DNA of 54,810 nucleotides from Candidatus Parcubacteria bacterium (GTDB taxonomy: Bacteria > Patescibacteriota > Minisyncoccia > Phycocordibacterales > Zambryskibacteraceae), in NCBI GenBank assembly GCA_019661785.1, contig JAIFWP010000002.1:105059-159868 (forward strand), read 5' to 3'. This document shows, one piece after another, positions 10,942 through 50,882 of the stretch. The notes below the pieces were generated by a model. The model searched no databases. It was not told the origin of the DNA and worked only from the letters and a program-made list of their open reading frames with translations. The translations under genes were made by a program, and so were the position numbers. Position 1 is the first letter of the stretch; every line of letters starts with the position of its first letter.

Positions 10942-10986
10942 ATGCCAAGAGTTTTAATGCTATCGCCGAAGCCCTTATCGCCTAAC

Positions 10987-11015
10987 TTGACAAAAATCAT
11001 ATTTAGGTGTACTAT
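10987..11015 (+). promoter_or_regulatory. Sigma70-type promoter TTGACA-N17-TACTAT driving the 11146 ORF
   Basis: The -35 hexamer is at 10987-10992 and the -10 at 11010-11015. A ~130-nt leader follows, with hairpins such as CAGGCACGG/CCGTGCCTG. Confidence 0.6.
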
Positions 11016-11145
11016 ACACAGGCACGGTGATTGCCGTGCCTGGTAAATCCGAGAGGGCTTACTTGCTTTTGTTCCTCACAGCGTCGCTAAAAGCTCTGGT
11101 ATTAATGCCAGACACTCTTTGAGTCAATAGCGACAAGGAGAAAGG

Positions 11146-11781
11146 ATGCGTCGTCTTCAGCGTACCATGCTCACCTGGCGGTTCGAGAACGATCTCGCTC
11201 CCGCTAGCCCGAACTTCATGCCCGTTAGTCTCGCTGACATGAGCGAGAAAGGGGTTTGTATCTCGCGAGTCGAGATTAGCCTCTTCCGCGACAAGGCCGA
11301 GATGGGTGTGTGGCTAGTTATTGGAGCGGGGGTTCTGCCTGGCCAGCGTGAGGGGATTCGCACTTGGCTCTTCCGCGTATTTCGTCCGCTCGGTGTTCCC
11401 GGTCTGCGGCTGGTCACGGAGATCGACGATGATGAGACCACTGAAGATGACCGAGGGCATCATCAGCATCCACAGGTCACCATGAACAGCAACAACGCTC
11501 GTCTCAGCTTCGAGTTCGATCGGGTTCCTGGCGAGGCGTTCACGACGACCGCGATGAGAGTGTTCTATGGGTTCGTCGACGCTCTCGAAGTTCCCGAGTC
11601 GTGGTGTTATCAGTTGCCATACCCGGTGGTCTATCAGGAGACCATGGTTTACGAGCCGAATGATGGATGGACTCCCTTCGGACACATTCTCGCCGATACG
11701 TGCCGTCTCGAGATGAGCAAGCATGAACAGCTGGTGTACCGCCTCGCAATGAAGTTGCGGGGAATCTCGGTTGACGTCTAA
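11146..11781 (+). CDS. Hypothetical protein (ORFan cassette between tpiA and pgk)
   Basis: 211 aa. SD AAGGAG lies 5 nt upstream of the ATG, and the ORF has its own promoter and terminator. I recognise no family. Confidence 0.6.
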   Translation: MRRLQRTMLTWRFENDLAPASPNFMPVSLADMSEKGVCISRVEISLFRDKAEMGVWLVIGAGVLPGQREGIRTWLFRVFRPLGVPGLRLVTEIDDDETTEDDRGHHQHPQVTMNSNNARLSFEFDRVPGEAFTTTAMRVFYGFVDALEVPESWCYQLPYPVVYQETMVYEPNDGWTPFGHILADTCRLEMSKHEQLVYRLAMKLRGISVDV

Positions 11782-11801
11782 GTACCATCACTTCTCTACA
11801 T

Positions 11802-11836
11802 GGCCGGCATCCTCTTGGGTGCCGGCCTTTCTTTTT
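11802..11836 (+). terminator. Rho-independent terminator
   Basis: GGCCGGCA...TGCCGGCC stem followed by TTTCTTTTT. Confidence 0.75.
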
Positions 11837-11849
11837 ATCAATAAGGATA

Positions 11850-11858
11850 TGCGATAAT
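11850..11858 (+). promoter_or_regulatory. Extended -10 box (TGcGATAAT) 6 nt upstream of the pgk GTG at 11865; putative leaderless promoter
   Basis: The motif and its spacing were read directly from the sequence. Confidence 0.45.
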
Positions 11859-11864
11859 AAGGCG

Positions 11865-16259: not shown

Positions 16260-17763
16260 CCGATTTATATACTCAGGGCTCTGGGGTTTTATCCTGGGGG
16301 TCCTCTTAGCTTCCTTATTCCAAATACCGCCCCTGGCTTGCGTGCTGGCTATAGCAGTCGCGTTCGTAGCCTATTTTGCAGAGAGACATGCCATTATTTT
16401 GATTTTCCTTTGTGCTTTGGCTCTTGGCGCACTGCGTTTTGATGTGAAAGACTTCCATGAGCTCTTGCCTATGGAGAGTACTGGCATGGTGGCGAGCGAG
16501 CCGGAGCACAGAGACATGGATACCAGGTTCGTCTTCGAGAGCGACAACGGAGAGAGAGCGCTTGTCTCGACGGATTTATTAAGCGGAGTGCAGTATGGCG
16601 ACAGGGTAGAGGTGAGTGCCAACTTCAAAGTCCCGGGAGTCATAGTCGACGAGACGGGACGGAGCTTCGACTACGGGGCGTATCTGTCTAAAGATGATAT
16701 TTATTACACAGCCAACTTTGCTAAAGTAGCTCAAATCGCCGAGAGCCCGTCGTCTGCTCACGGTCAGGCATCGGTAGATTCGCGACCGACGGGCTCTCGG
16801 CTTATTTCGGGGTTGCTCAAGGTTAAGAATTCTTTTGTTGAGAAGATGAGGCAGATTTTGCCTGAGCCGGAGTCCTCTCTATTGGCTGGGCTTATCGTTG
16901 CGGGGAAGCAGGCCTTGCCTAAGTCGATACTAGATGAGTTCCGCCGTGCTGGAGTGGTGCATATCGTAGTCTTGTCGGGCTACAACCTGACTGTCATCTC
17001 TGAGTTCTTGCTAGTCCTACTGGCCTTCCTTGGCAAACGCAGGTCGGCTCTCGTCTCGGCGGTTGCCATAGTAGCCTTCACCTTGATGACTGGGGCTACA
17101 GCTACCGTAGTCAGAGCCGCCATTATGATACTCCTCGTCCTCTTGGGCCGGATTATCGCTCGGCCTGGCTCCTCGCCGCGCATACTCCTATTCACGGGAG
17201 TCGTCATGCTTCTAGAGAACCCTAAGGAACTCGTCTTCGATCCATCCTTCCAGCTCACTTTTCTTGCTATGCTAGCGCTGATTTATACCGTACCGATATT
17301 CGAGAGATTTTTAACTAAAATCCCTGAGAAGTTCGGTTTACGTACGCTTCTCGCTACTACCCTAGGCGTACAAGTAGTTGTTTTGCCTTACATCTTGTAC
17401 AACATGGGCAATTTCTCGACTGTCTTCCTGCTCTCGAACCTTCTTATACTTTTCGTAGTGCCATTTACCATGCTCATCGGCTTTGCTGCAACCATACTGG
17501 CCTATGTTTCAGGCATTATTGCTTGGCCACTAGCTTTTATATCGCACCTTCTGCTCTCCTGGATTCTGTTTGTAGCAGGTTTCTTGGGTAATTTGAAATG
17601 GGCCAGTATCCAAATACAGAGTTTCCCGCTTTGGTTGACTCTTCTTATATATGTAGTGCTGGGGACGCTGATTTTTGCAAAAGAAGAAGCGCGAGAACTA
17701 GTCTCGCGCTTCCGGAGTCACTGGCCGAAGAAGACAATCGTATCACCGCGGAGCTCCGCATGA
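16216..17763 (+). CDS. comEC: ComEC/Rec2-family DNA-uptake channel protein (competence domain only, no MBL domain)
   Basis: 515 aa. An N-terminal OB-like part is followed by a polytopic competence domain (LLAGLIVAGKQALP..., VVHIVVLSGYNLTV). The start is uncertain because it overlaps rnhA by 44 nt. Confidence 0.8.
   Translation: MMDRSPSTESVLRRNRFIYSGLWGFILGVLLASLFQIPPLACVLAIAVAFVAYFAERHAIILIFLCALALGALRFDVKDFHELLPMESTGMVASEPEHRDMDTRFVFESDNGERALVSTDLLSGVQYGDRVEVSANFKVPGVIVDETGRSFDYGAYLSKDDIYYTANFAKVAQIAESPSSAHGQASVDSRPTGSRLISGLLKVKNSFVEKMRQILPEPESSLLAGLIVAGKQALPKSILDEFRRAGVVHIVVLSGYNLTVISEFLLVLLAFLGKRRSALVSAVAIVAFTLMTGATATVVRAAIMILLVLLGRIIARPGSSPRILLFTGVVMLLENPKELVFDPSFQLTFLAMLALIYTVPIFERFLTKIPEKFGLRTLLATTLGVQVVVLPYILYNMGNFSTVFLLSNLLILFVVPFTMLIGFAATILAYVSGIIAWPLAFISHLLLSWILFVAGFLGNLKWASIQIQSFPLWLTLLIYVVLGTLIFAKEEARELVSRFRSHWPKKTIVSPRSSA
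17686..17712 (-). terminator. Perfect 11-bp hairpin (GAAGCGCGAGA/TCTCGCGCTTC) with a U-tract on the minus strand; terminator of ORF 17718-18098, embedded in the comEC 3' coding region
   Basis: The palindrome was read directly. On the minus strand it is followed by TTCTTTTGCAAAAAT. Confidence 0.6.
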
Positions 17764-18098
17764 TAGAAGACGCCTTGGCGGAAGGGGCACACGTCGACGC
17801 TGTTGCCCTTGACGCCTTGATTCCATCTTGGGCCCTTGATGCGGTAAGGACTGTGGAGCACGAAACGTTCTGTCCAGCTCATCACCTTGCCATCTTTCGG
17901 CCTGAGGTGCGGACGGCCAGCCTCGAAATGCAGCCATCCATCCTCGTCCTTGCCTTGGCAGACGATGACTTCAAAGATGCCGCGGCGGTTGAGCGAGTTG
18001 ACGGCCGCCTCGCGTCCGACAGGCAGCCAAGCTGCGGCAGCCGCGACGATAATCAAGATGAGGCCTGTCTGGGCCATGAGTGACGCACGACTTTGCAA
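17718..18098 (-). CDS. Small secreted hypothetical protein (ORFan cassette)
   Basis: 126 aa. SD AAGGAG lies 5 nt upstream of a TTG start. Signal-peptide-like LILIIVAAAAAWLPVG. The terminator hairpin starts 5 nt after the stop. The gene converges on and overlaps comEC by 46 nt. Confidence 0.5.
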   Translation of the reverse strand: MQSRASLMAQTGLILIIVAAAAAWLPVGREAAVNSLNRRGIFEVIVCQGKDEDGWLHFEAGRPHLRPKDGKVMSWTERFVLHSPYRIKGPRWNQGVKGNSVDVCPFRQGVFYHAELRGDTIVFFGQ

Positions 18099-18131: not shown

Positions 18132-18731
18132 CTATTTCTGCGCTTCTGTAAAGTTCTTCTCGCACGTTTGCCAGTTGAGGTTTGCGAGGAAGGCGTCAAC
18201 GTACTTGCCTTTGCCTGCTGCGCCGTAGTCGAGGATGTAGGTGTGCTCCCACACATCGAGCGCGAGGATGATAGGTAGGGAAGCGAAATGCCCAATATGC
18301 TGCTCCTCAGAGAAGCCGAACATGAGGTTGCCGCTCACAGCGTCGTAATACATGATGGACCAGCCTGGTCCGCGCATCATGCCGACGTTCTTAATAAATT
18401 TCATTGTAGTGTCGACTGAGCCGAACTGCTCTATCATCTTCTGCTCAAGCGCTCCGCCTGAGGTGAGGGGGGTCGGGCCGCCCTCAAGATGCTTGAAATA
18501 ATACTCGTGAAGCCTCATGCCACCGAACTCGAAGGACAAGCGACGCTGGAGCTCGGATAAGGCAATCGCGTTTTGCTCCGAGTCTGCCATGAGCTTGCCC
18601 ATGAGCTCGCAGATGCCGTTAAAGTTCTTTACATAGCCTGCGTAGAGGCCCAGATGCTCCTCTATAGACTTAGTCGAGATGCCGTTAAGCCCGCCTATAT
18701 TAAATTTCAATGGTTCGAATGTTTTTGTCAT
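18132..18731 (-). CDS. sodA: Fe/Mn superoxide dismutase
   Basis: 199 aa. The N-terminal helical hairpin block is present, and DVWEHTYILDY matches the DxWEHAYY metal-ligand motif. Confidence 0.92.
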   Translation of the reverse strand: MTKTFEPLKFNIGGLNGISTKSIEEHLGLYAGYVKNFNGICELMGKLMADSEQNAIALSELQRRLSFEFGGMRLHEYYFKHLEGGPTPLTSGGALEQKMIEQFGSVDTTMKFIKNVGMMRGPGWSIMYYDAVSGNLMFGFSEEQHIGHFASLPIILALDVWEHTYILDYGAAGKGKYVDAFLANLNWQTCEKNFTEAQK

Positions 18732-18737
18732 GAGACG

Positions 18738-18743
18738 ATTATA
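18738..18743 (-). promoter_or_regulatory. TATAAT box 6 nt upstream of the sodA ATG; putative leaderless promoter, overlapping the divergent -10 of the 18752 gene
   Basis: The minus strand reads TATAAT-cgtctc-ATG. Confidence 0.45.
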
Positions 18744-18745
18744 CT
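18740..18745 (+). promoter_or_regulatory. TATACT box 6 nt upstream of the ATG at 18752; putative leaderless promoter
   Basis: The plus strand reads TATACT-atatgt-ATG. The whole divergent intergenic region is only 20 nt. Confidence 0.45.
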
Positions 18746-18751
18746 ATATGT

Positions 18752-19612
18752 ATGAAATCTGTACGCCTGTATTGGCGTGAGTGCATCTTGGCGGTGCTCG
18801 TAGCGGCGAACTTGGTTGTCTTTAGCCTCGCTCGTGCAGAAGGGGAGACGGACTTGCTCCGTGTTTATTTCCTCGACATTGGCCAGGGCGACAGCATCTT
18901 CATCGACTCTCCGACACACGGCCGAGTGCTCGTTGACGGAGGTCCAAATGGCAAGGTCTTGAGCGAATTGGGCAAGATACTGCCCTTCGGTGATAGGCGG
19001 ATAGATGTGGTCATTGAAAGCCATCCGGATGCAGACCACATCACCGGCCTAGTGGATGTGCTGAAGAACTATCAAGTCGGCGTCTTCATGGAGCCGGGCG
19101 TAGAGACCTCGACCAATAAGGTTCATGTCACGCTCGAGGGCGAGGTGCAGAGCCTCAATATAAAGAAGATCATTGCGAAGAGAGGTATGACCATCGACTT
19201 GGGTGCCGGAGTGGTGATGACAATCCTCTTCCCAAACCAAGATGTGAGGGACTGGGAGACGAACGATGCCTCCATAGTAGCCAAGCTCACGTATGGGAGT
19301 GAGAGCTTTTTGCTGACTGGAGATTCTCCCAAGAAAGTTGAGTACATCTTACTCAGCTTAGATAAAAATATTTTGAAATCGACCGTCTTAAAGGTCGGTC
19401 ATCATGGATCGAAAAACTCGACCTCGCTTATATATGCTGAAGCTGTGGCGCCGGAGTATGCTGTCATCTCTGCCGGAGCGGGGAACAGGTATGGTCACCC
19501 GTCGAAAGAGGCCTTGGACGTCTTGAATCAAGTCGGCGCGAAAATCGTCTCAACCATAGACATGGGCACTATCGAATTCGACACAGACGGAGAGACGCTG
19601 TATCTAAAATAA
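18752..19612 (+). CDS. MBL-fold metallo-hydrolase, ComEC C-terminal-domain-like (stand-alone)
   Basis: 286 aa with an N-terminal anchor. YFLDIGQGDSIFI, HPDADHITGL, LLTGD, GHHGS and YGHP match the beta-lactamase-like domain usually fused to ComEC. Confidence 0.85.
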   Translation: MKSVRLYWRECILAVLVAANLVVFSLARAEGETDLLRVYFLDIGQGDSIFIDSPTHGRVLVDGGPNGKVLSELGKILPFGDRRIDVVIESHPDADHITGLVDVLKNYQVGVFMEPGVETSTNKVHVTLEGEVQSLNIKKIIAKRGMTIDLGAGVVMTILFPNQDVRDWETNDASIVAKLTYGSESFLLTGDSPKKVEYILLSLDKNILKSTVLKVGHHGSKNSTSLIYAEAVAPEYAVISAGAGNRYGHPSKEALDVLNQVGAKIVSTIDMGTIEFDTDGETLYLK

Positions 19613-19954: not shown

Positions 19955-20212
19955 ATGACCCGAGCACAGATCGTGAAAGGGCTTGTGGACTACCTCACCA
20001 AGCCGAAGTGTCCCAACGGTAAGTGCGGCATCCGAGACTCTCGCAGGGTCGAAGTGAGCCGAACAGTACGCCGACCGGGCAAGCCGGGCGATGGAGGCCT
20101 GTGGTATGACGAGGTGGTCGACGCCAACGAGTGCAATGGCTGTCACACCCGGTTTCGCCACGATACGCGGGCTGAGGATCACGACCCCAGTCGAATCCTC
20201 GCAGTTGCCTGA
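19955..20212 (+). CDS. Small zinc-ribbon-like hypothetical protein (ORFan cassette)
   Basis: 85 aa with CPNGKC...CNGCH cysteine pairs. SD GAGGG lies 7 nt upstream, and hairpin 20225-20254 lies downstream. Confidence 0.5.
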   Translation: MTRAQIVKGLVDYLTKPKCPNGKCGIRDSRRVEVSRTVRRPGKPGDGGLWYDEVVDANECNGCHTRFRHDTRAEDHDPSRILAVA

Positions 20213-22859: not shown

Positions 22860-23228
22860 TTACTCCCAAGGATTCTTCTCCCTGGTTTTCTTCGATGACG
22901 GCCTGATCATGAGCCGAGCCCGGTCGTAGTCCTTGACTCTCATCATCTGGTAGACTCGCCACCTGCTGATGATTGGCCACTGCACATACCGGTACAGCTT
23001 CTGGATCCGCTCTGCATGGTAGTTCAGCAAATGACGATGCAAGAGTACTCCAGCGACCCCTGCTACCATGCTTGCAACCATGCAGATCACGAACTCTCGA
23101 GCTGCATCTTGACCGAGACCCCTGAGGTCGAAGACCTCCTGACAGATGCCCCAGACTGTGATGCTGACTCCAGCGCTTGTGATAACAACCAGATATACAT
23201 CAAGGTAGAGGCCGTTCCGTCTTTGCAT
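22860..23228 (-). CDS. Two-TM hypothetical membrane protein (ORFan cassette)
   Basis: I chose the start at 23228, which has SD GAGG 4 nt upstream. The ORF could extend to a TTG at 23246. There are two hydrophobic helices and a basic C-terminus. Confidence 0.5.
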   Translation of the reverse strand: MQRRNGLYLDVYLVVITSAGVSITVWGICQEVFDLRGLGQDAAREFVICMVASMVAGVAGVLLHRHLLNYHAERIQKLYRYVQWPIISRWRVYQMMRVKDYDRARLMIRPSSKKTREKNPWE

Positions 23229-35638: not shown

Positions 35639-35639
35639 T

Positions 35640-38847: not shown

Positions 38848-38856
38848 TACACGCAC

Positions 38857-39177
38857 ATGAAATTAAACCAGAAACAGGCTAAAAGGGAGAGAAACCACAA
38901 GAAGATCCGTTCCCAAATCTCCGGTACGGCTACTTTGCCTCGCTTGGCTGTCTTCAAGTCGAACACTGCCATCTCAGCCCAGCTTATCGACGACGAGCGC
39001 GGAGCTACTCTGGCTCACGCCAGAGGCAAGGATGCCGAGAAGGTTGGTGCTGAGGTGGCCAAGGCGGCTATCGGCAAGTCGATAGAGGCCGTGGTCTTCG
39101 ACCGAGGCGGATACATATACACTGGCAAGGTCAGAGCCCTAGCTGATGCAGCTCGCAAGGCCGGACTCAAATTCTAA
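38857..39177 (+). CDS. rplR: 50S ribosomal protein L18
   Basis: 106 aa. The L18 blocks [31 protein letters not shown] and [13 protein letters not shown] are present. Confidence 0.95.
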
Positions 39178-39181
39178 TATT

Positions 39182-39847
39182 ATGGAACCAGAAACAATCA
39201 CACAAGTAACACCAGAGGCAACTCCCGCTCTCCCGACGAACGAAGTTGTCGGGACTCCGACTGCAAGCGTCGGAGCTGCAAGGAACGACAACAGGATGAG
39301 TCGAGACCCAAGAGCTGCTCCTCCTAGAGGCGGCAGACGAGACAACCGCCGCGGGCCTCGCCGCGACACCAGACCTAAGTCTGAGTTCGACCAGAAGATA
39401 GTTAGCCTCCGCAGAGTGACCAGAGTGACTTCCGGCGGTAGGCGCTTCGCCTTCGCTGTCTGCGTGGTAGCAGGCAACAGGAAGGGCATGGTCGGAGTCG
39501 GCCAGGGCAAGGCAGGAGATACGCCTCTCGCTATAGAGAAGGCCTTCCGCGACGCAAAGAAGAACATGATAACCGTGAACACCACCTCAAAGATGTCCAT
39601 CCCTCACGAGACAGAGGCCAAGTTCGCCGCATCAAGGGTGAGAATCATGCCTGCTCCGGGCAAGGGGATACTCGCAGGCTCTTCCGTCCGTGCCGTCCTC
39701 GAGCTCGCCGGCATGCGCGAGATATCGGCCAAGCTCTTCTCCCGCTCGAAGAACAATATCAATAACGCATACGTAGCCATCGAAGCGCTTAAGAAGCTCT
39801 CCGGTACGAAGTTGAAGCGTGTCCACCGAGAGGCCGTCACCAAATAA
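39182..39847 (+). CDS. rpsE: 30S ribosomal protein S5 (with ~60-aa disordered N-terminal extension)
   Basis: I chose the ATG at 39182. The S5 blocks VSLRRVTRVTSGGRRFAF, VVAGNRKGMVGVGQGKA and GSSVRAVLELAG are present. Confidence 0.93.
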   Translation: MEPETITQVTPEATPALPTNEVVGTPTASVGAARNDNRMSRDPRAAPPRGGRRDNRRGPRRDTRPKSEFDQKIVSLRRVTRVTSGGRRFAFAVCVVAGNRKGMVGVGQGKAGDTPLAIEKAFRDAKKNMITVNTTSKMSIPHETEAKFAASRVRIMPAPGKGILAGSSVRAVLELAGMREISAKLFSRSKNNINNAYVAIEALKKLSGTKLKRVHREAVTK

Positions 39848-39856
39848 TATAAGTAT

Positions 39857-40135
39857 ATGCAGTCCAACACTCTACAAGCCAAGACCAAGCGCACAAGAAG
39901 CCGACAAGTCGGTCGAGGCGGCACGCGCGGCAAGACCTCAGGCAAGGGCACCAAGGGGCAGAACGCTCGCGCCGGACGCAAGAAGCGCCCTGAGCTCCGC
40001 GACTTCATCAAGCGCTTCCCTAAGCTCCGTGGCCGCGGCAAGAACTCCTTCAAGGCCTTCCAGCCTAAGCTCTCCGGCGCTGCGCTAAAGGCCCACCTAG
40101 CTGAGAAGAAGGCAAAGAAAGCAGATAAGAAGTAA
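39857..40135 (+). CDS. rplO: 50S ribosomal protein L15 (truncated, 92 aa; N-terminal extended region only)
   Basis: The RQVGRGGTRGKTSGKGTKGQNARAG...FPKLRG pattern is L15. secY starts 5 nt after the stop, so no C-terminal globular domain is encoded here. Confidence 0.85.
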   Translation: MQSNTLQAKTKRTRSRQVGRGGTRGKTSGKGTKGQNARAGRKKRPELRDFIKRFPKLRGRGKNSFKAFQPKLSGAALKAHLAEKKAKKADKK

Positions 40136-40139
40136 TACC

Positions 40140-41414
40140 ATGTTCGGCACCTTCATACAGAAAATGCGTCTCGTCTTCGGAGACCCGGTGCTGCGCGGCA
40201 GGATACTCATGACCGTTGGCATCCTCATCCTCGCGAGAGTCCTCGCGGTTTTTCCCATACCTGGCATCAACTCGGCTGCGCTCGCGAGCCTCTTCACTGG
40301 CAACCAGTTCCTCTCGCTTTTGAACATCTTTTCTGGCGGCGGACTATCCTCGCTCTCCATAGTCATGCTTGGAGTGAGCCCTTACATCACGGCTTCTATC
40401 ATCATGCAGCTCCTCACTCTCATGGTCCCAAGGTTGAAGGAGATGTACCAAGAGGAGGGTGATGCCGGACGACGCAAGTTCGCCCAGTACTCGCGCCTCC
40501 TCACTGTGCCTTTGGCACTCCTGCAGGGTTATGCCTTCCTCACTCTCTTCCAGAGACAGGGAGTTTTGCCGTCACTCACTCTCTCGACTTTGGCTCTCGA
40601 CATGGTCCTCATCACTGCAGGCTCGCTCCTCATGGTCTGGCTCGGTGAGATCATCACGGAGTTTGGCGTTGGCAATGGTATCTCCCTCATCATTTTCGCC
40701 GGCATAGTCAGCCGCTTGCCTGGCACCTTGGGCCAACTCATATTCACCTTCGACCCATCGCAGCTCCCGACCTACATTGGCATGCTCGTGCTTATTATCC
40801 TCGTAATCGTGGGCGTTGTCATTGTCACAGAGGCCGAGCGTCCTATACCTATCACTTATGCCAAGCAGATGCGGGGAGGCTCCGTCTCAGGAGGCATGAC
40901 TAGCTACTTGCCTCTACGATTAAACCAGGCTGGAGTTATCCCTATCATATTCGCTCTCTCGGTGCTCCTTTTCCCACAGATGATATTGCAGTTCCTCGGC
41001 AATTCGTCGAACGTCTCTGTAGCTCACACATCGGCTACTCTCCTCGGCTACCTTACCAATGTCTGGTTCTATGACATTGCTTACTTCCTCTTGGTCTTCG
41101 TCTTCACATACTTCTATACTGCAGTGACCTTCGACCCAGACCAGATGGCCGAGAACTTGCAGAAGTCGGGAGCCTTCGTCTCTGGCGTCCGTCCTGGCGA
41201 GCCGACCGCAGCCTATGTGTCCAAGGTCCTTACAAGACTCACTCTGATAGGAGCTCTGTTCTTGGGTGCCATAGCAGTCTTGCCGCTTGTACTCCGCTCC
41301 GTCACTGGCCAGCAGTCGCTAGCTATCGGCGGTACTGCTCTCCTCATCGCCGTCACTGTGGTCATCGACCTAGTGAAGAAGATAGACGCTCAAATTACCG
41401 CCCAGCAATACTAG
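40140..41414 (+). CDS. secY: Preprotein translocase subunit SecY
   Basis: 424 aa with 10 TM segments. The blocks IPGIN, LGVSPYITASIIMQLL and GISLIIFAGI are present. Confidence 0.97.
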   Translation: MFGTFIQKMRLVFGDPVLRGRILMTVGILILARVLAVFPIPGINSAALASLFTGNQFLSLLNIFSGGGLSSLSIVMLGVSPYITASIIMQLLTLMVPRLKEMYQEEGDAGRRKFAQYSRLLTVPLALLQGYAFLTLFQRQGVLPSLTLSTLALDMVLITAGSLLMVWLGEIITEFGVGNGISLIIFAGIVSRLPGTLGQLIFTFDPSQLPTYIGMLVLIILVIVGVVIVTEAERPIPITYAKQMRGGSVSGGMTSYLPLRLNQAGVIPIIFALSVLLFPQMILQFLGNSSNVSVAHTSATLLGYLTNVWFYDIAYFLLVFVFTYFYTAVTFDPDQMAENLQKSGAFVSGVRPGEPTAAYVSKVLTRLTLIGALFLGAIAVLPLVLRSVTGQQSLAIGGTALLIAVTVVIDLVKKIDAQITAQQY

Positions 41415-41427
41415 GTATAATGGAGCG

Positions 41428-42027
41428 ATGCTCCATACAGTAATCTTTATTGGCCGCTCGGGTTGCGGCAAGGGTACGCAGGCCGACCTCTTGAAGGAGC
41501 GCATCACGCGCCTCGACCCCGAGAAGCGCAAGATACTCTATGTCGAGACGGGAGACAGATTCCGCAAGTTCATCCGAGGCAAGACCTACTCCTCAAAGCT
41601 CTCTGAGAAGATATATGAAGAGGACGCCAGGCAGCCCGACTTCCTCGCTGGGCTTATGTGGGGTAGTATGCTCCTCGAGGAGTTAGGAGAGGACATGCAC
41701 ATAGTCTTCGACGGTGTAGCCCGCTCAGAGCCCGAGGCCAAGCTCCTCACTACGGCCTTAGAGTTCTACAAGCGCGAGAGGCCAACGATAATACACATAG
41801 AGGTGAGCCGCAGGTGGAGCGAAGACAAACTCTTGAAGCGCGGACGCTCTGACGATGTGAATATATCTAAGATAGACAAGCGCCTGGACTGGTTCGACAA
41901 GGACGTAGTGCCAGCGCTCGACTACCTGCGCGCCAATCCTATGTACAGAGTGCTGGATGTGAATGGCGAGCAGACCATCGACGAAGTGCACCGAGAGATA
42001 ATATCCAAATACGACTATGGCAATTAA
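41428..42027 (+). CDS. adk: Adenylate kinase-family nucleoside monophosphate kinase (copy 1)
   Basis: 199 aa. It has P-loop IFIGRSGCGKGTQ, FDGVARSEPEAK, and a short lid with RGRSDD. Confidence 0.85.
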   Translation: MLHTVIFIGRSGCGKGTQADLLKERITRLDPEKRKILYVETGDRFRKFIRGKTYSSKLSEKIYEEDARQPDFLAGLMWGSMLLEELGEDMHIVFDGVARSEPEAKLLTTALEFYKRERPTIIHIEVSRRWSEDKLLKRGRSDDVNISKIDKRLDWFDKDVVPALDYLRANPMYRVLDVNGEQTIDEVHREIISKYDYGN

Positions 42028-42592
42028 TACATTCATCTTCATGGGACGCCCCGGCGCAGGCAAGGGTGTGCAGTCCGCGCTACTCTCGGAGGAGATGGGT
42101 TTTCCTATATTTTCTACTGGCGACAAGGTCCGTTCTATAGCTAAGGCCGAACATACTCTAGGCAAGAAGGTTAAAGAGGTATCAGAGTCCGGAGGCCTCA
42201 CTCCGCACTGGTTTGCTTCCTTCCTCTTCCAAGAGGCGCTCTTTGCCAAGGGGGAAGGTGAGGGGATTATATTTGAGGGTGTGGGGCGTAAGGAACCTGA
42301 GGCTAAGCTCTTCGCCGAGATTAATGAATGGCTCGATAACGACTTCCGAGTTCTCTATCTCAATGCCTCAGAGGAGACTATTACCAAAAGACTCATAAAG
42401 CGTGGAGAGCTTGAGGGCCGAGCCGACGACACGCCAGAGAAGATTAAGGTGAGGCTAGAAAATTTCAATAAAGAGACACAACCTGCACTTGAGTACCTCC
42501 GCTCTATCGGCAAAGTCATCGACATAGACGGTGAGCCTCTACCAGACGCAGTGCATGCAGAAGTGATGGAGAAACTCAAGCCGTTACTATGA
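42017..42592 (+). CDS. Adenylate kinase-family nucleoside monophosphate kinase (copy 2, tandem paralog)
   Basis: 191 aa. It has P-loop IFMGRPGAGKGVQ, FEGVGRKEPEAK and GRADD. It overlaps copy 1 by 11 nt. Confidence 0.85.
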   Translation: MAINTFIFMGRPGAGKGVQSALLSEEMGFPIFSTGDKVRSIAKAEHTLGKKVKEVSESGGLTPHWFASFLFQEALFAKGEGEGIIFEGVGRKEPEAKLFAEINEWLDNDFRVLYLNASEETITKRLIKRGELEGRADDTPEKIKVRLENFNKETQPALEYLRSIGKVIDIDGEPLPDAVHAEVMEKLKPLL

Positions 42593-43356
42593 TTAAACTA
42601 AAGACCAAAGACGACATACAGACCATGCGCGAGGGCGGTCAGAGACACGCTGAGATACTCCGCGCCCTCGCCGAGATGGTTACTCCTGGCATGTCGACTC
42701 TCGTGCTTGAGGAGGAGGCCTTGAGACTCATTAAGGCCCACGGCGACAAGCCCGCGCATCTTAACTACACTCCGGCCGGCGCCTTGCGCCCCTTCCCAGC
42801 GGTGCTTTGCATATCGGTTAATGACGAGATAGTGCACGGGATACCAAACGAGCCTGAAAAGATATTAAACCAAGGCGACATAGTGGCTATCGACCTCTCC
42901 ATAGAGCACAACGGTCTCATCACCGACTCGGCCATCACAGTGCCGGTCGGAGCTATAGACGACGAGTCGAGACGGCTTCTTGATGTGACCAAGCGAGCTC
43001 TCGATGCCGGTATCAAGGCCGCAAGGCCCGGCAAACATATTGGCGACATCGGCGCGGCGATATCTAGAGTTGTGGACGAGTCTGGCTTCTCGCTCGCGGA
43101 GGACTTGGCAGGACATGGAGTAGGATATGAGCTCCATGAGGAGCCCTTCGTGCCAAACGTAGGCATCTTCGGTGAGGGAGAGGAGCTAGTGCCAGGCATG
43201 GTCATCGCCATAGAGCCAATGGTAAATGTCGGCGGGCCGGAAATTGCTGACACAGGCGACGGCTACACCATAGTCACCGCCGATGGCTCCCGCGCCGCCC
43301 ATTTCGAACACACGGTGGCAATAACAGAGGAAGGAAATATTGTTTTGACCCGCTAG
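42589..43356 (+). CDS. map: Methionine aminopeptidase type I
   Basis: 255 aa. The metal-ligand blocks HGIP, DIVAIDLS, GHGVG and IEPM are present. Confidence 0.95.
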   Translation: MIKLKTKDDIQTMREGGQRHAEILRALAEMVTPGMSTLVLEEEALRLIKAHGDKPAHLNYTPAGALRPFPAVLCISVNDEIVHGIPNEPEKILNQGDIVAIDLSIEHNGLITDSAITVPVGAIDDESRRLLDVTKRALDAGIKAARPGKHIGDIGAAISRVVDESGFSLAEDLAGHGVGYELHEEPFVPNVGIFGEGEELVPGMVIAIEPMVNVGGPEIADTGDGYTIVTADGSRAAHFEHTVAITEEGNIVLTR

Positions 43357-43398: not shown

Positions 43399-43575
43399 AT
43401 GTGGCCCATGCGAGTCAAGAGCACGATGGCAGCTCCGTCGGAGGAATGCCTGAGCAAGAACCAAGTCATGCTCGCAGCTGAAGGGCAGACGGATGCTTCA
43501 GTCCGAGATCACCTCAAGAAGTGCAGCACATGCAAGGCCTCGGTCGAAGAACGTTTACAAGCGCTGGATGAATAA
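43399..43575 (+). CDS. Stand-alone zf-HC2 (anti-sigma-factor-type zinc finger) mini-protein, 58 aa
   Basis: I chose the ATG at 43399 with SD GAGGT 4 nt upstream. ...VRDHLKKCSTCKASVEE matches H-x3-C-x2-C. Terminator hairpin 43560-43594 overlaps the stop. Confidence 0.5.
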   Translation: MWPMRVKSTMAAPSEECLSKNQVMLAAEGQTDASVRDHLKKCSTCKASVEERLQALDE

Positions 43576-43594
43576 TCCAGCGCTTCCCTTTTAT
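43560..43594 (+). terminator. Rho-independent terminator
   Basis: AGCGCTGGAT/ATCCAGCGCT followed by TCCCTTTTAT. Confidence 0.65.
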
Positions 43595-46832: not shown

Positions 46833-47438
46833 CTAGAGCTTGGCTTCTAGGGCCTTGAGCTCCTCTTCGATCTTGAGCTTCAGGACGAGAACATCATCGA
46901 TGAGGCGAGGACTGACCTTTTCGATGAGGGGCAGGTAATACTTCCTGGTCTCCTCGATCTTGCGCCGCTGCTTCTCGACAGTGCAACCATCGAGAGTCCT
47001 CACGTTGTGGAGACGGTCACAGAACTTAAGAAGGATGGCCCAGTCTCCGCCTGCGACAATCCGCTCGACAGTTGACTCGACCGACTCGCCGTCGCGCTTG
47101 GTGAGAGCGGAGACAAGGCCTTCCACACGTTCGCCCCAGATGTGGGGGATGTCCTCGATTTCGATGAGCCAGTGATCCTCTGGCACGTCGTGAAGGATCA
47201 TGGCGACAATCAGGTCCGGATCAAGGATATCGAGCTCGTCGATCAGGATGAGCACCGTGGCACGCGGATGCTCGAAGTAGCGTCCGCCGCCTTCACGTGT
47301 CTGACTGCGATGACCCTCCTTTGCCTGCTTGTAGGCAAAGCGAATCTTCCATAGATCGTGTGGCCGCATCTTATGGCGAAGACGCCAGAAAAATGTTGCC
47401 CGGTTCTCGACGGGTACAACAACTGCCGTGGTTGTCAT
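46833..47438 (-). CDS. HD-domain protein resembling the RelA/SpoT (p)ppGpp-hydrolase domain (small-alarmone-hydrolase-like)
   Basis: 201 aa. YFEHPRATVLILIDEL...IVAMILHDVPEDHW carries the HD motif in the SpoT-hydrolase arrangement, followed later by LLKFCDRLHNVRTL. SD-like AAGGGGA lies 5 nt upstream. Confidence 0.7.
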   Translation of the reverse strand: MTTTAVVVPVENRATFFWRLRHKMRPHDLWKIRFAYKQAKEGHRSQTREGGGRYFEHPRATVLILIDELDILDPDLIVAMILHDVPEDHWLIEIEDIPHIWGERVEGLVSALTKRDGESVESTVERIVAGGDWAILLKFCDRLHNVRTLDGCTVEKQRRKIEETRKYYLPLIEKVSPRLIDDVLVLKLKIEEELKALEAKL

Positions 47439-47493
47439 GAGGATCCCCTTCGTTTGGGTCTACAAAGAAAATAGCACAAAAAGTAGGTCCTGT

Positions 47494-48000
47494 CTAGGCT
47501 CGTTCGATAATGGCGCTCATGCCCTTAGGGCTCCTCGTAGGAGGGGCAGCTATCTTGTGGGGGACAGTTACCAGCTTTAAGATGCGCTCTAGGCGCTCTC
47601 TTAAGAACTTCTCATCAAGATATTTGGCGCGTCCGGGCAAAAATAGGTTCAACTGGACTCTGTTGCCCTCGGCTAGCCACTCGCTGGCCTTCTTCGCCTT
47701 GAGGCCCAGGTCATGGTCTCCGGTACCAAGCTTCACTTGGACGGCTTTGACCTCTACGGAGTGGGCTTTCTTCTTGGCGTCCTTCTCCTTCTTCTGCTCG
47801 GCATACATGTACTTGCCTAGGTCGGTGATCTTGGCTACAGGAGGGTTAGCATTGGCCGATATCTCGATGAGGTCGAGGTCGAATTCATGCGCTTTCTTGA
47901 GGGCATCCTCTAGAGTGAGGACTCCGAAATTTTCTCCTGCTGGTCCAATGACGCGTACTTCCTTGGCTTTGATGGCGTGATTCGTGCGGGGTGTTAGCAA
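47494..48000 (-). CDS. infC: Translation initiation factor IF-3
   Basis: 168 aa. INHAIKAKEVRVIGPAGENFGVL..., DLDLIEIS and the C-domain block are present. The ORF opens with TTG at 48000, and non-AUG starts are classical for infC. Confidence 0.93.
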   Translation of the reverse strand: MLTPRTNHAIKAKEVRVIGPAGENFGVLTLEDALKKAHEFDLDLIEISANANPPVAKITDLGKYMYAEQKKEKDAKKKAHSVEVKAVQVKLGTGDHDLGLKAKKASEWLAEGNRVQLNLFLPGRAKYLDEKFLRERLERILKLVTVPHKIAAPPTRSPKGMSAIIERA

Positions 48001-48600: not shown

Positions 48601-48747
48601 ATGGCAAATCGATCAGGCGGTAACTCTTCAAGGAGTAACGGCAACAGGAATTCTCAGTCTTCCTCTTCTCGCGGCAATGGGAGCAGAGGTGGCAGCAAGA
48701 GCTCAGGTCGCGGACGAGGCAACTCGAGCGGCAGCGACTCTCGCTAG
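48601..48747 (+). CDS. Micro-ORF, 48 aa, low-complexity Ser/Gly/Arg/Asn-rich (RG/RGG-like)
   Basis: This ORF is not in the ORF track. It reads MANRSGGNSSRSNGNRNSQSSSSRGNGSRGGSKSSGRGRGNSSGSDSR. The terminator at 48779-48803 follows. There is no SD. Confidence 0.35.
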   Translation: MANRSGGNSSRSNGNRNSQSSSSRGNGSRGGSKSSGRGRGNSSGSDSR

Positions 48748-48778
48748 CTCTTAGCGCATAACGCCAAAGCAACACAAG

Positions 48779-48803
48779 ACCGCCTCATACGGGCGGTTTT
48801 GTA
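48779..48803 (+). terminator. Rho-independent terminator
   Basis: ACCGCCTCATACGGGCGGT followed by TTTGTATT. It abuts the convergent cls stop. Confidence 0.7.
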
Positions 48804-50123
48804 TTAGTACTGCTTAGCGAAAATCCTAGAGACTCTGCCAAAGAGCCTGTCGAGCACTCTTATCTTGAAGCTGTCCCCGGTGATCTCCTTCGAGCGTCTC
48901 TTGTCGAGCATAAACTCCTTCTCTATATCAGCGGCAAGTGCGCGGTCCTCTATGCCCATGAGGTTCTCGACATTTAGTGTAGATGAGCGATTGTCGAGGT
49001 TGGCGCTGCCTATTACTGACCAGTGCCCATCGACTGTTACAATCTTCGAGTGCATGTGAGCCGGTGCATATTCATATATATGTATCCCAGCATCGAGTAT
49101 CTCCTTGTAGTATGAGCGGCTGGCGAGCTGCACCACGCGCGAGTCTACATATGGCCCAGGCACTAGTATGTCTACCTCAACGCCCTCACTTGCTTTCTGC
49201 TTCAGAGCCTTGAGGATGTTGCTGTTTGGCAGCATGTATGGGGTCTCTATATAGATGTGATTCTCGGCGCCCATGATGGAGAGCCAGAGGAACTGGTATA
49301 AGCTCTTCTCCAGGTCGGGAGTAGGCGAGTGGTATAGAGGGATAAAGCATGTGCCCTTGCATGTGTCTGATACAGCGTAGTTCGGCAGGCTGGGATAAAA
49401 GCTCTCACCCGAGAGCAGTTCGCCGTTTGTCTGGCGCCAGAGGTCCGCGAACATGTCTTGAATGCTCCGCGCGGGCAACCCGGTGAACTTGAACATGATA
49501 TCTCGCCATTCGCCGGGCTCCTCTCCCTTGCCGAGCCACTCATCGTTGAAGGCTACTCCGCCTATGTAGCCCGTCTCTCCATCCACGGCCATAGCTCGCA
49601 GATGCGTGCGTTTGTTGAGGCGAGTGAGAGTCTTTAGCCCTATTGGCCTGAACTTCGCTATTTTGCCTCCAGCCTTCTCCAAGGCTGCAACCTTATCTTT
49701 GGGCGCCCCGAGAGAGCCCTTACCGTCCATGAGGACTCTCACTTCTACACCGGCCGATGCTCTCTCAGTCAGAGCGTCGAATATCTCACTCGTCATGTTA
49801 CCTTTCTTCCAAATGTAGTTGGCCAGGGTTATAGAGCGTTTTGCCCCCTTTATCTCCTGAAGCAGGTCTGGGATGAACTCGTCGCCGTTATTGAGTATCT
49901 TCACACTGCCTTCTGCCAAAGGATATATGGGCGAGTGGGCGATGCTTGCCGCAGCTCTGTAGAACTCGGGTGTGCTGAGAGCCATAGGGACAGTGCTCCA
50001 CACCTCGACCTCGGTATCTGTCCAGGGAGTGAACCAGGCCAGCAGGGTGAGGGTCGTGGCGAGGACTCCTATGACTATGAGTGCAGTAATCATCTTAGGG
50101 TGGCCTATGAAATGCGCTTTCAT
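48804..50123 (-). CDS. cls: Cardiolipin synthase-like phospholipase D family protein
   Basis: 439 aa with an N-terminal TM helix. The second HKD motif is canonical (HSKIVTVDG...GSANLDNRS). The first is variant (HLRAMAVDG, K to R). Confidence 0.85.
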   Translation of the reverse strand: MKAHFIGHPKMITALIVIGVLATTLTLLAWFTPWTDTEVEVWSTVPMALSTPEFYRAAASIAHSPIYPLAEGSVKILNNGDEFIPDLLQEIKGAKRSITLANYIWKKGNMTSEIFDALTERASAGVEVRVLMDGKGSLGAPKDKVAALEKAGGKIAKFRPIGLKTLTRLNKRTHLRAMAVDGETGYIGGVAFNDEWLGKGEEPGEWRDIMFKFTGLPARSIQDMFADLWRQTNGELLSGESFYPSLPNYAVSDTCKGTCFIPLYHSPTPDLEKSLYQFLWLSIMGAENHIYIETPYMLPNSNILKALKQKASEGVEVDILVPGPYVDSRVVQLASRSYYKEILDAGIHIYEYAPAHMHSKIVTVDGHWSVIGSANLDNRSSTLNVENLMGIEDRALAADIEKEFMLDKRRSKEITGDSFKIRVLDRLFGRVSRIFAKQY

Positions 50124-50179
50124 ATAAGCTGTCTATGTATAGACGGTTTTCCGTTAAATTCTCTACAATACGAAACTGT

Positions 50180-50428
50180 CTACTTGTAATTCACGAAGTC
50201 GGAGAGCTTCCGCACTTTTTCCTCAAGTTCTTCTATCTTCTTATCATCTTCCTCGTGGTGTTTGAAGAATCTTATGAGTCTTGGCCATATGAGTACGCCG
50301 ATGATGAGGTCGAAGATGACTATGAGGAAGACTTCAAACTCCCAGTGGGGGAGGTTAGTGAGCAGGGTCCAGAATGTTTCCTGTTCGGGCATGTATATCC
50401 AGACTACTCTCGTTTTCATAAAATGCAA
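50180..50428 (-). CDS. Small membrane protein, hypothetical
   Basis: 82 aa, or 79 aa from the ATG at 50419. It has one TM helix (VFLIVIFDLIIGVLIW) and a charged coiled C-terminus. Confidence 0.5.
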   Translation of the reverse strand: MHFMKTRVVWIYMPEQETFWTLLTNLPHWEFEVFLIVIFDLIIGVLIWPRLIRFFKHHEEDDKKIEELEEKVRKLSDFVNYK

Positions 50429-50443
50429 AACCGCCCCAAGGTT

Positions 50444-50752
50444 TCAAGCCTTAGGGCGGATGCGTTGCGGGAAACTCAGAAGGATGCTCATCATGGTGTC
50501 ATCGAGCGCGTCTTCAGGTGTACCTACTTGTTTCAGGTACTGCCTCAGTCTCGCCTTGGTCATGTTGATATTCGGGAAGAGCAGGTCCCACATAAAGAAG
50601 ATTGCTTCGCCGGAACGCTCCTTGAAAGCCTCCTCCTTTCTTTCGTCCTTGGTTATCTCTGCTTTCTCTCTGCTTCCTTCGACAACCCCAAGGACTCGGA
50701 TACTTCTGCTGTTAGGAATCGTACCAAGAATGGCCCAAATCTCTTCACGCAT
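50444..50752 (-). CDS. Hypothetical protein, 102 aa
   Basis: SD GGAG lies 6 nt upstream of the ATG. The hairpin terminator CCGCCCTAAGG...CCTTGGGGCGG plus TTTTGCATTTT overlaps the next gene's start. Confidence 0.5.
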   Translation of the reverse strand: MREEIWAILGTIPNSRSIRVLGVVEGSREKAEITKDERKEEAFKERSGEAIFFMWDLLFPNINMTKARLRQYLKQVGTPEDALDDTMMSILLSFPQRIRPKA

Positions 50753-50882
50753 ATGAATCTCCGTATTTAGCCTTTTTGTACCTTACACTTTATTATATGA
50801 AAAATCAAAAGAGGTGAAGGGATTGGTGCCCTCCGCCAGACAAAAAAGAAAAACCGACATAAAGCCGGCTTTCTTTTTGTTG

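Follow-up and report, generated by a model that had tools for sequence, protein, structure and literature searches.

Start sites with and without a Shine-Dalgarno motif on one Paceibacteria chromosome: conserved genes and small ORFan cassettes

Introduction

Can conserved and strain-specific genes of one chromosome differ in the way their translation is started? This question is raised by a stretch of 54,810 nucleotides (positions 105,059 to 159,868 of contig JAIFWP010000002.1, assembly GCA_019661785.1), in the following referred to as the window, for which an earlier note had claimed two initiation regimes: core genes almost without a Shine-Dalgarno (SD) element, and about 13 small ORFan cassettes, each led by one. 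The window belongs to a chromosome from the Paceibacteria (Parcubacteria/OD1, CPR), with a best L5 identity of 80% to Zambryskibacteria and other Paceibacteria. The CCTCCT anti-SD motif was detected in only 48% of Parcubacteria, and the lineages without it overlap with the group lacking uL1 (Tsurumaki et al. 2022, RNA 28:1041, PMC9297842), to which the clade described here may belong. That study dealt with rRNA and the proteins of the ribosome rather than with start sites on mRNAs. Neither in the window nor in 156 further loci was an rRNA found.

SD signals of core genes and ORFans

The SD energy was calculated as the duplex with ACCUCCUUU over positions -20 to -1, a canonical anti-SD which may not be the organism's own. 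As a strict motif measure, we used the longest match to TAAGGAGGTGATC, the purine-rich counterpart of the canonical CCUCC tail, with its end 3 nt or more upstream of the start. While the core genes (57 scored of 58 conserved or recognisable ones) showed a median of -1.7 kcal/mol and 0% at or below -8, the 13 ORFans showed a median of -8.3 kcal/mol with 69% at or below -8 (Mann-Whitney p=4e-8). Thus, for the window, the scores bear out the described dichotomy of nearly SD-less core genes and SD-led ORFans. The motif was present at its described position for all 14 starts listed in the earlier note, of which 13 belong to ORFans; the remaining one, 47438, precedes a gene with a Pfam HD_4 domain, which is not an ORFan.

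With the strict measure, the listed starts comprised matches of at least 4 nt in 14/14, at least 5 nt in 9/14 and at least 6 nt in 5/14 cases, compared to a background of 25.5%, 8.7% and 2.6% for all 4817 start triplets of the window (binomial P=3.8e-7 for the 5-nt class). The corresponding values for the core genes were 8.6%, 5.2% and 0%, a depletion below background (P=0.001). The spacing between motif and start was 3-7 nt and once 11 nt. Five of the starts (19955, 23228, 37300, 47438 and 50752) showed 4-nt matches only, each of which lies within chance when taken alone.

Two details of the original description could not be maintained. Not every small ORF carries an SD, since the ORFan at 21835-22128 interrupts the str operon without one and looks leaderless. 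Furthermore, the "GGAG" regarded as a weak SD of adk falls within the 6 nt that separate a TATAAT box from the ATG and is therefore probably not an SD.

Start regions of the core genes

In 14 of the 58 core genes, the start is preceded by a -10 box at a distance of 4-9 nt, in 10 of them at exactly 6 nt, compared to none of the 14 SD-led starts and 1.8% of all ATGs as background. This points to leaderless mRNAs for these 14 genes, the transcription starts being predicted. The arrangement can be illustrated by a divergent gene pair, in which a TATAAT or TATACT box lies exactly 6 nt upstream of each ATG, and it recurs at 2262, 6080, 11865, 15777, 20277, 21835 and 41428. The other core genes showed A-rich, G-depleted junctions. 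For the core genes, G was reduced to 5-14% in the region from -13 to -1, compared to 24% in the background, while A was enriched. An example is a ribosomal-protein block broken only at the cassette slots.

18719..18770, both strands: divergent sodA (start 18731, minus) and MBL gene (start 18752, plus), putative leaderless example
26379..43356, plus strand: conserved tuf/S10/spc/secY/adk/map block; genes without SD, upstream regions A-rich and G-poor

Layout of the SD-led cassettes

Each SD-led unit consists of one small ORF, or of a short bicistron, between a promoter and a terminator of its own.

10987..11015, plus strand: promoter-like TTGACA-17-TACTAT upstream of cassette 11146, 10/12 consensus matches
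11092..11145, plus strand: leader of cassette 11146; hairpin CTGGTATTAATGCCAG, second short hairpin, SD AAGGAG (11135-11140) 5 nt upstream of the ATG
11146..11781, plus strand: ORFan of 211 aa, rare family (8 distant homologues)
11802..11827, plus strand: intrinsic terminator of cassette 11146; 11-bp stem with 9 GC pairs, then TTTCTTTTT
17718..18098, minus strand: ORFan of 126 aa, TTG start; SD AAGGAG 5 nt upstream, terminator 17713-17685 (minus)
19955..20212, plus strand: Cys-rich ORFan of 85 aa; weak SD GAGGG, 14-bp terminator 20224-20255
22860..23228, minus strand: membrane-like ORFan of 122 aa; weak SD GAGG, promoter-like site 23307-23280 (minus), hairpin and T-tract past the stop
25772..25926, plus strand: Pro-rich 43-aa ORF (25795-25926); AGACCC leader 25772-25777, SD AGAGGAG
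25969..26186, plus strand: basic 64-aa ORF (25992-26186); AGACCC leader 25969-25974, SD GGAGGAG
30236..30727, plus strand: cassette with 126-aa ORF, GTG start 30314; promoter-like TTGACT-17-TATCAA, SD GAGGAGG, 12-bp terminator 30700-30727
30733..31003, plus strand: cassette with very basic 71-aa ORF (30788-31003); TTGACC promoter-like site, SD GGAGGG
36804..37631, minus strand: insert between L5 and S14, two units
37574-37368, minus strand: unit 1 of this insert, 68-aa ORF; two AGACCC copies (37615, 37600), SD GAGGAGG, terminator 37365-37346
37300-37151 and 37151-36834, minus strand: unit 2, bicistron of 49-aa and 105-aa ORFs with 1-nt overlap (TGATG), then a terminator; AGACCC at 37321, SD GGAGGTG before the 105-aa ORF
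43399..43585, plus strand: ORFan of 58 aa in the map-ndk gap; SD GAGGT, hairpin 43559-43585 spanning the stop
46833..47496, minus strand: SD-led accessory gene for a 201-aa HD_4-domain protein (47438-46833); TAGACA-17-TATTTT promoter-like site at 47496, AGACCC at 47461, SD AAGGGGA, terminator
50444..50752, minus strand: ORFan of 102 aa; weak SD GGAG, TATAAT box 39 nt upstream

The strongest hairpin plus T-tract sites of the region follow ORFans (11802, 17713 on the minus strand, 20224, 25911, 30700, 37346/37365 and 43559), and terminators are clear for 10 units. TTGAC-type promoters were found at 10987, around 30236 and around 30733, with a TAGACA at 47496 on the minus strand. The promoter-like sites, assigned for 11146, 23228, 25992, 30314, 30788, 37300 and 47438, are consensus matches only. 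The 6-nt leader motif AGACCC is common to five cassettes.

Coding character of the ORFs

NCBI annotates 8 of the 10 tested ORFs with exactly the starts used here, in agreement with the claim that they are real, and as a set the ORFans showed coding periodicity (GC1 0.60, GC2 0.44, GC3 0.66). The opposite reading would be that the ORFs are spurious and that the GGAGG-like strings, either chance products or parts of GC-rich hairpins in intergenic DNA that has expanded, were selected for preceding a start codon. Indeed, a 4-nt match precedes a quarter of all start triplets, clearly spurious pairs of SD and ORF occur in the gaps (e.g. 11348, 20106, 30633 and 50358), homologue searches gave no match for 12 of the 13 ORFans, and the 43-aa ORF at 25795 is weak and the least certain of the set. 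However, in a worst-case null of 144 spurious antisense or out-of-frame ORFs, with the best-SD start chosen for each, only 9% reached -8, and the ORFans exceed this null (p=1e-5). Besides this, the enrichment of matches of at least 5 nt and the frame periodicity argue against an artefact, as does the fact that each ORF spans the interval from its own SD to a strong terminator. For the 211-codon ORF, homologues were found and AF2 gave a confident fold (pLDDT 75, pTM 0.71), two adjacent ORFans have a domain in common, and the 105-aa ORF showed a helical core with a pLDDT of 68-89 in a single-sequence AF2 model. Altogether, an artefact is considered highly improbable.

SD use and slot content in relatives

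Core starts of 80 relatives (n=1106) showed a median of -0.4 with 1.4% at or below -8, and a replicate set (n=114) showed 0%. This establishes the lack of SDs at core genes as a clade-wide property.

The cassettes are inserted between genes which are adjacent in relatives, namely in the slots tpiA/pgk, comEC/sodA, L28/M50, sortase/fusA, fusA/tuf, L2/L10, L5/S14, map/ndk, L35/IF3 and tmRNA/PLD. Among relatives, the slot length ranges from 27 nt to more than 3 kb: the L5/S14 gap comprises 27 nt in two of them (L002 and L004) compared to 923 nt here, and the L2/L10 gap 121 to more than 1200 nt. The content is different in every relative, demonstrating hypervariable slots. Often, the slots of relatives likewise hold SD-led ORFs with terminators, and SD 5-mers before gap ORFs of the 80 relatives peak at -13 to -8 (9.2% vs 3.2%).

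SD use is inversely related to conservation. None of 69 genes present in at least 10 loci was SD-led, compared to 29/140 singletons, and for genes shared by at least 3 loci the amount was 4/96 (singletons vs shared genes, Fisher p=2e-4). In relatives, SD-led starts precede, among others, the genes for MazF (twice), a reverse transcriptase, a HerA/T4CP-like ATPase and a PIN-PhoH protein, and some of the genes led in this way belong to mobile elements. Since only about 20% of the lineage-specific genes in relatives are SD-led, and the window itself contains SD-less ones (2262, 2754, 4709 and 21835), the SD marks a subset of the accessory genes and not all of them.

Origin of the cassettes

The 11146 protein has 8 distant full-length homologues (31-38% identity), which lie in contigs whose core genes are SD-less. 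A strong SD and an 11146-type leader were present in 5/5 homologues with readable upstream DNA (L081-L085), and hairpin 1 of the family leader showed 2 compensatory pairs. In four further CPR-like contigs whose DNA could be read, members with the same leader and SD occupy differing genomic sites; one homologue adjoins an HTH_36 gene, a large serine recombinase and a tRNA. Comparison of these upstream regions shows leader and SD to be conserved across different loci, and the differing sites, together with the mobile-element genes among the SD-led genes of relatives, show exchange within the CPR gene pool. For the 12 singleton cassettes, mobility would be an extrapolation from the 1 of 13 ORFans with detectable homologues.

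The suggested common foreign origin from a phage, a host or another SD-using donor was not supported: phage, plasmid, PHROG, PADLOC and IMG/VR searches gave no match, and the GC3 of the ORFans (0.655) equals that of the core genes (0.651). Apart from AGACCC, no sequence shared between the cassettes was found. Integron cassettes or MITE-like repeats (attC, terminal repeats) were rejected, as an all-against-all comparison of 10 gaps gave nothing longer than 13 nt and no integrase was found within the window. Residence in a phage or prophage was rejected as well, based on the setting in a chromosomal ribosomal-protein operon and the phage, PHROG and IMG/VR searches.

Two start-site architectures

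On balance, we consider it probable that one chromosome comprises two start-site architectures, an SD-independent default and an SD route for self-contained cassettes. The claim of two regimes thus stands for window and clade, but refined, the default comprising leaderless starts as well as A-rich ones independent of an SD, and the SD side leadered, self-contained cassettes. In the default route, operon-first genes would be transcribed from a -10 box ending about 6 nt before the ATG, giving leaderless mRNAs; both their transcription starts and their leaderless translation are inferred from the position of the box. At operon-internal genes, the junctions are rich in A, depleted of G and carry a T at -1, which suggests re-initiation or binding of unstructured RNA. 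The SD route comprises 13 or more small units, complete in themselves and located in a few hypervariable gaps between genes, each with a sigma-70-like promoter, a probable start of transcription close to AGAC(CC), a leader of 25-45 nt (once about 125 nt and structured), a canonical GGAGG-type SD, an ORF of 43-211 aa and one of the strongest terminators of the region. A leadered monocistronic mRNA would be barred from the leaderless route and would therefore depend on SD/anti-SD pairing for 30S recruitment. The cassette SDs presumably pair with the organism's own 16S tail. The cassettes probably belong to the flexible gene pool of the clade, which is partly exchanged horizontally, and carry their own expression signals along, like the "morons" of phage genomes.

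The same motifs could be idle relics, if the cassettes came from SD-using donors (a host bacterium, phage or plasmid) into a cell whose ribosome either has no anti-SD or makes no use of it. The reported loss of the motif in about half of the Parcubacteria, i.e. in the same superphylum (PMC9297842), would predict clade-wide SD-less core genes, as observed. Internal SD-like motifs were not avoided in the core coding sequences of relatives (observed/expected 0.92-1.08), which thus give no independent hint that an anti-SD is active. Relative to the core genes, the ORFans had a lower CAI (0.61 vs 0.70) and a slightly raised GC. However, anti-SD loss does not predict canonical, well-spaced cassette SDs, which it makes puzzling, and the spacing of the 5-mers in relatives is canonical. 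The unsuccessful donor searches and the matching GC3 speak against foreign sources. Since a useless motif should decay over a divergence to 31-38% identity, the conservation of SD and leader in the 11146 family, all in CPR-like contigs, also argues against relics, and this explanation is regarded as unlikely.

Alternatively, the anti-SD could be normally hidden and the cassettes translated conditionally or by a sub-population of ribosomes, the SD being a switch and not a general recruitment signal. In Flavobacterium johnsoniae and other Bacteroidia, nearly all genes are SD-less, strong canonical SDs being found at a minority; bS21, bS18 and bS6 sequester the anti-SD, and ribosomes without bS21 translate the SD-led rpsU (PMC7797042, PMC9976891, PMC13000453). 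The clade described here resembles them as an SD-less lineage with upstream adenines and few guanines at its starts and two coexisting initiation modes, and AGACCC in five cassettes would fit a co-regulation. In contrast to the single autoregulated ribosomal-protein gene of Bacteroidia, the SD-led genes here are many heterogeneous, strain-specific ORFan cassettes, and leaderless promoters are common. The frequent absence of bS21 in Parcubacteria (PMC9297842) counts in favour of a gated class; but if bS21 is absent here, the Bacteroidia-type anti-SD pocket would be missing. A gated class of this kind is given little probability compared to what is assumed for the two architectures.

Comparison with other genomes

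In leaderless-rich genomes such as Mycobacterium tuberculosis (Actinobacteria), Deinococcus and the GeneMarkS-2 "group C", a -10 box lies about 6-7 nt before operon-first starts, and leadered genes, including core and operon-internal ones, generally carry an SD. The window shows the same box about 6 nt before operon-first starts, but its operon-internal core genes are also without SD. The anatomy of the cassettes (own promoter, small ORF, strong terminator) is that of the "morons" of lambdoid phages, and like these they lie between genes whose adjacency is kept by relatives, with varying content. Unlike morons, they are found in a cellular chromosome, inside ribosomal-protein operons and not in a prophage, and the phage searches gave no homologue.

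A further-reaching and rather doubtful extension would be a dual translation system, in which the conserved proteome is SD-blind or SD-less and an SD channel is reserved for hypervariable, exchanged cassettes. Such a system could operate by an anti-SD gated through ribosome heterogeneity, analogous to but independent of the bS21 switch of Bacteroidia; if the 16S tail is without CCUCC, another mechanism would have to read the GGAGG leaders. If true, the SD would be a tag that holds flexible genes (symbiosis, conflict) under separate translational control.

Shine-Dalgarno sites at ORFan and core starts

Small unrecognisable ORFs of the window had been claimed in an earlier note to carry Shine-Dalgarno (SD) sites, in contrast to the core genes. 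The respective motif was found at all 14 listed starts, and a quantitative scan confirmed that SD frequency differs between the two gene sets. With duplex energies computed against ACCUCCUUU, the median was -1.7 kcal/mol for the core or recognisable genes (n=57), not one of which reached -8, compared to a median of -8.3 and an amount of 69% reaching -8 for the 13 ORFans (p=4e-8). As a null against the picking of ORFs for their SD, 144 ORFs lying antisense or out of frame within long genes were each scored at their best-SD start. Even in this worst case, only 9% reached -8 (p=1e-5 compared to the ORFans). Based on a strict positional motif measure, a match of at least 5 nt was present at 9 of the 14 ORFan starts, whereas the rate among the 4817 start triplets of the window was 8.7% (P=3.8e-7), the other five listed motifs comprising only a 4-nt match, while core genes were depleted in SD matches relative to the start-triplet background (P=0.001). 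These per-ORF nulls (best-SD spurious ORFs and all start triplets) are the valid ones for SD enrichment. A crude count of "SD plus ORF" density in gaps versus inside genes was discarded as a measure, since in-frame internal starts in long genes meet the ORF criterion trivially.

The further claim that every small unrecognisable ORF carries an SD holds true for the 14 listed starts and fails for the small ORFan 21835, which has none. Gene 47438 contains a Pfam HD_4 domain and is therefore not an ORFan. The "GGAG" at adk lies 3' of a TATAAT box, ahead of the ATG. The strongest terminators of the region, hairpins with a T-tract, stand 3' of ORFans, and several TTGAC-type promoters lie upstream of them.

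SD-independent starts as the default of the clade

A -10-like hexamer ending 4-9 nt 5' of the start codon was observed for 14 of 58 core genes (exactly 6 nt in 10), compared to 1.8% of all ATGs and 0 of 14 ORFans. Such a hexamer close to the start codon is the signature of predicted leaderless mRNAs. Among 1106 core starts in 80 related loci, the median energy was -0.4 and 1.4% reached -8; this scarcity of strong SDs was true of every gene family examined. In an independent set of metagenome loci from a JGI scan, 0 of 114 core starts reached -8. The sequence upstream of 1003 core starts was A-rich with a maximum of 63% at -6, showed T at -1, and was depleted in G from -13 to -1 (5-14% compared to a background of 24%). 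Accordingly, SD-independent initiation belongs to the clade and not just to the genome of the window.

The acidic ORFan of 97 aa at 21835-22128 is markedly AT-rich (GC 0.37 compared to 0.53 in the core) and comprises a TATACT box 6 nt 5' of its ATG. It is a compositionally foreign-looking gene on the predicted leaderless route.

The ORFans as genes

The view that the SD-bearing ORFs are real is supported by annotated starts, coding periodicity, a shared domain and a structure model. Eight of ten ORFans tested are annotated NCBI proteins with exactly the listed starts, each a singleton cluster at 90% identity. Coding periodicity was observed over the ORFan set (GC1 0.60, GC2 0.44, GC3 0.66); ORFan GC3 equals core GC3, while the CAI is lower than in the core. 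The adjacent ORFs 37300 and 37151 have a common domain (E=6e-5), and for the 105-aa ORF a single-sequence AF2 model showed a helical core with a pLDDT of 68-89.

The ORFans matched no family of Pfam, PHROG, PADLOC or NCBIfam, and no tblastn match to window ORFans was obtained in the 80 relatives, in contrast to the SD-less unknown genes 32101, 44510, 48044 and 50180, which do have such matches. A word-indexed protein search with concatenated ORFans also returned no match, which is a weak negative, as the window's own proteins, although contained in the collection, were not returned either; in two of these searches, Gly-Ser linkers perhaps saturated the candidate list. Within 17685-17763, the minus-strand ORFan 18098 overlaps by 46 nt with the convergent ORF of comEC, which ends at 17763, and the ORFan's terminator falls inside the final comEC codons.

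Gene content of the window and its relatives

Gene content was determined by a codon-usage gene model combined with Pfam. Besides a type IV pilus cluster, the window encodes tpiA, pgk, recJ, rnhA, comEC and sodA. Its str/S10/spc ribosomal-protein block comes with secY, two adk genes, map and ndk. A beta-CASP nuclease, L35-L20, IF3, a PLD-like protein, a tmRNA, ftsH and two tRNAs are also encoded, while uL30 is absent. In a search of one genome per species, the L5 protein matched best to metagenome-assembled genomes of Zambryskibacteria and other Paceibacteria (Parcubacteria/OD1), with at most 80% identity. The gene order is common to the nearest relatives, including an L10-L7/L12-unknown (195 aa)-MscS-like block (31181-33436) that separates L2 from S19 and has no L11/L1 genes nearby. 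This placement is kept in the related loci L001-L009, and in L030 the block follows L5. The placement may be tied to the uL1-lacking group of Parcubacteria.

Several further features were observed. Between the end of L16 (35390) and the start of S17 (35414), where uL29 is usually encoded, the gap (35391-35413) does not contain it, and no L29-like ORF was found elsewhere in the window; in L001 and most relatives this gap measures 210-290 nt, and it encodes L29 in L001. Tandem adenylate-kinase paralogues (41428-42592) overlap by 11 nt, while most relatives apparently contain a single adk region matching both. uL3 (27950-28384) is short, its 144 aa amounting to about two thirds of the normal size, with similarly short matches in the nearest relatives. 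A tRNA-Ile with the anticodon TAT (UAU), unusual in bacteria, lies at 54405-54479. Adjoining the pilus genes, a secreted protein (3271-4707) combines collagen-like GXY repeats with a Peptidase_S74 (endosialidase chaperone) domain at its C-terminus, a phage tail-fibre-like architecture.

Insertion slots and origin of the cassettes

The SD-bearing ORFs occupy intergenic slots that are hypervariable among relatives. The L5|S14 slot ranges from 27 nt to more than 3 kb, and the slots L2|L10 (or L2|S19), fusA|tuf and L35|IF3 are similarly variable. Since the best JGI metagenome match in a scan for closer relatives was just 57% identical to the window, the exact insertion borders of the cassettes are not definable. 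ORFs with a terminator and a strong SD at the correct distance also occur in slots of relatives (for example L5|S14 in L005, L2|L10 in L009 and L002). SD 5-mers peak at -13 to -8, with 9.2% for gap ORFs compared to 3.2% for ORFs that lie within core genes. In a codon-filtered set of non-core genes, 29 of 140 singletons had a strong SD, compared to 4 of 96 genes common to at least 3 loci (Fisher p=2e-4) and 0 of 69 common to at least 10. SD thus marks a subset of the flexible genome, the majority of lineage-specific genes still being without it. Where the SD-led genes of relatives are recognisable, they are of a typical flexible or selfish kind, among them MazF (twice), a PaaX-like regulator, a reverse transcriptase, a PIN-PhoH protein and a HerA/T4CP-like ATPase.

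In anatomy and placement, the self-contained cassettes are like phage morons. A phage or host donor, as proposed in the earlier note, found no support. A phage or plasmid origin was rejected, as tblastn against phages and plasmids, the PHROGs, PADLOC and NCBIfam libraries, and an IMG/VR scan with the profile of the 11146 family all remained without match. The alternative of a distinct class is supported. Integron- or MITE-like borders, repeats or any other sequence common to the cassettes were not found, except for the hexamer AGACCC.

AGACCC copies in cassette leaders (motif recurrence)
25772, plus strand
25969, plus strand
47461, minus strand
37615, minus strand
37600, minus strand
37321, minus strand

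Six of the window's 21 copies thereby fall in about 420 nt of leader sequence. In five cassettes the hexamer stands directly 3' of a -10-like box and 2-13 nt 5' of the SD, and it may be a transcription start mark or a common regulatory site. As it was not found in the corresponding leaders of relatives, the motif is specific to the genome of the window.

The 11146 family

For the 211-aa protein at 11146, exhaustive HMMER against 1.84 billion representative proteins gave eight full-length homologues with 31-38% identity. Including these homologues, a confident AF2 model was obtained (pLDDT 75, pTM 0.71). Foldseek showed no significant PDB neighbour; the YbjN and type-III-chaperone-like matches were weak (best E-value 0.08), and no function was assigned. 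The family profile had no match in IMG/VR or the JGI metagenomes.

Contexts were looked up for seven homologues and the DNA was read for five. The homologues lie on CPR-like contigs, whose core genes (L20, IF3, SmpB, ArgRS, ribosomal-protein operon) are SD-less or leaderless-looking, while all five with readable DNA carry a strong SD. The SD is retained despite a protein divergence of more than 60%.

Sites of the 11146 family
Window: tpiA|pgk slot
L085: upstream of the S10 operon
L081: between IF3 and a PemK toxin, within an island of unknown genes that carry SDs
L083: beside an HTH_36 protein, a large serine recombinase and a tRNA

The gene moves, or stays, along with its own expression signals within CPR genomes. 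The five homologues and the window have in common a two-hairpin leader (window 11092-11145, L081-L085), aligned from TCTGGTATTAATGCCAG over CTTGGG.AACCAAG to ATGACAGCAAGGAGG. Its first hairpin comprises a TATTAAT loop and two compensatory pairs among six sequences. With two conserved hairpins 5' of the SD, the leader may be an uncatalogued cis-regulatory RNA; Rfam gave nothing at the gathering threshold.

On the L085 contig (500-8430; GCA_034680565.1, JAXOUH010053769.1), 12 of 14 S10/spc operon genes have spacers of about 85 nt composed of inverted 7-mer tandem repeats, (TAGGAGT/TAGGAAC)n after the stop codon and (CTAACTC/ACTCCTA)n up to the ATG. These could form long intercistronic hairpins holding anti-SD-like CUCCU runs.

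Implications for translation start in Paceibacteria

CPR/Patescibacteria represent a large share of bacterial diversity, and to our knowledge almost nothing is known about their translation start. A full-text literature search found no paper on a gene-level SD split of this kind in CPR. In the window and about 120 related loci, conserved Paceibacteria genes manage without SD, many as apparent leaderless mRNAs, while a canonical, well-spaced SD is kept specifically on strain-specific, self-contained cassettes. Altogether, we lean towards two predicted start architectures: a leaderless or A-rich, SD-independent one for the native proteome and a leadered, SD-dependent one for self-contained accessory cassettes.

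For gene annotation, the signature of SD and terminator should aid in the recognition of genuine small ORFans against the noise of CPR genomes. A gene caller that expects an SD will mis-handle one start class, and a caller that expects "no motif" the other. The fixed insertion hot spots within ribosomal-protein operons are useful for the study of gene flux in these reduced genomes.

The CCTCCT motif was found in only 48% of Parcubacteria, and its absence overlaps with the uL1-lacking group (Tsurumaki et al., PMC9297842). None of the 156 loci examined contained rRNA genes, and avoidance of internal SD-like motifs in core coding sequences, a proxy for an active anti-SD, was not reflected by any depletion. 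If the 16S tail is canonical, the split between cassettes and core is a new variant of a Bacteroidia-like situation; with a non-canonical tail, the conservation and good spacing of the cassette SDs are a real paradox. Some Parcubacteria seem to have lost the anti-SD motif, a published puzzle that is now tied to a directly testable prediction: if the cassettes are translated, a functional 16S tail, or else another recognition route, would be required.
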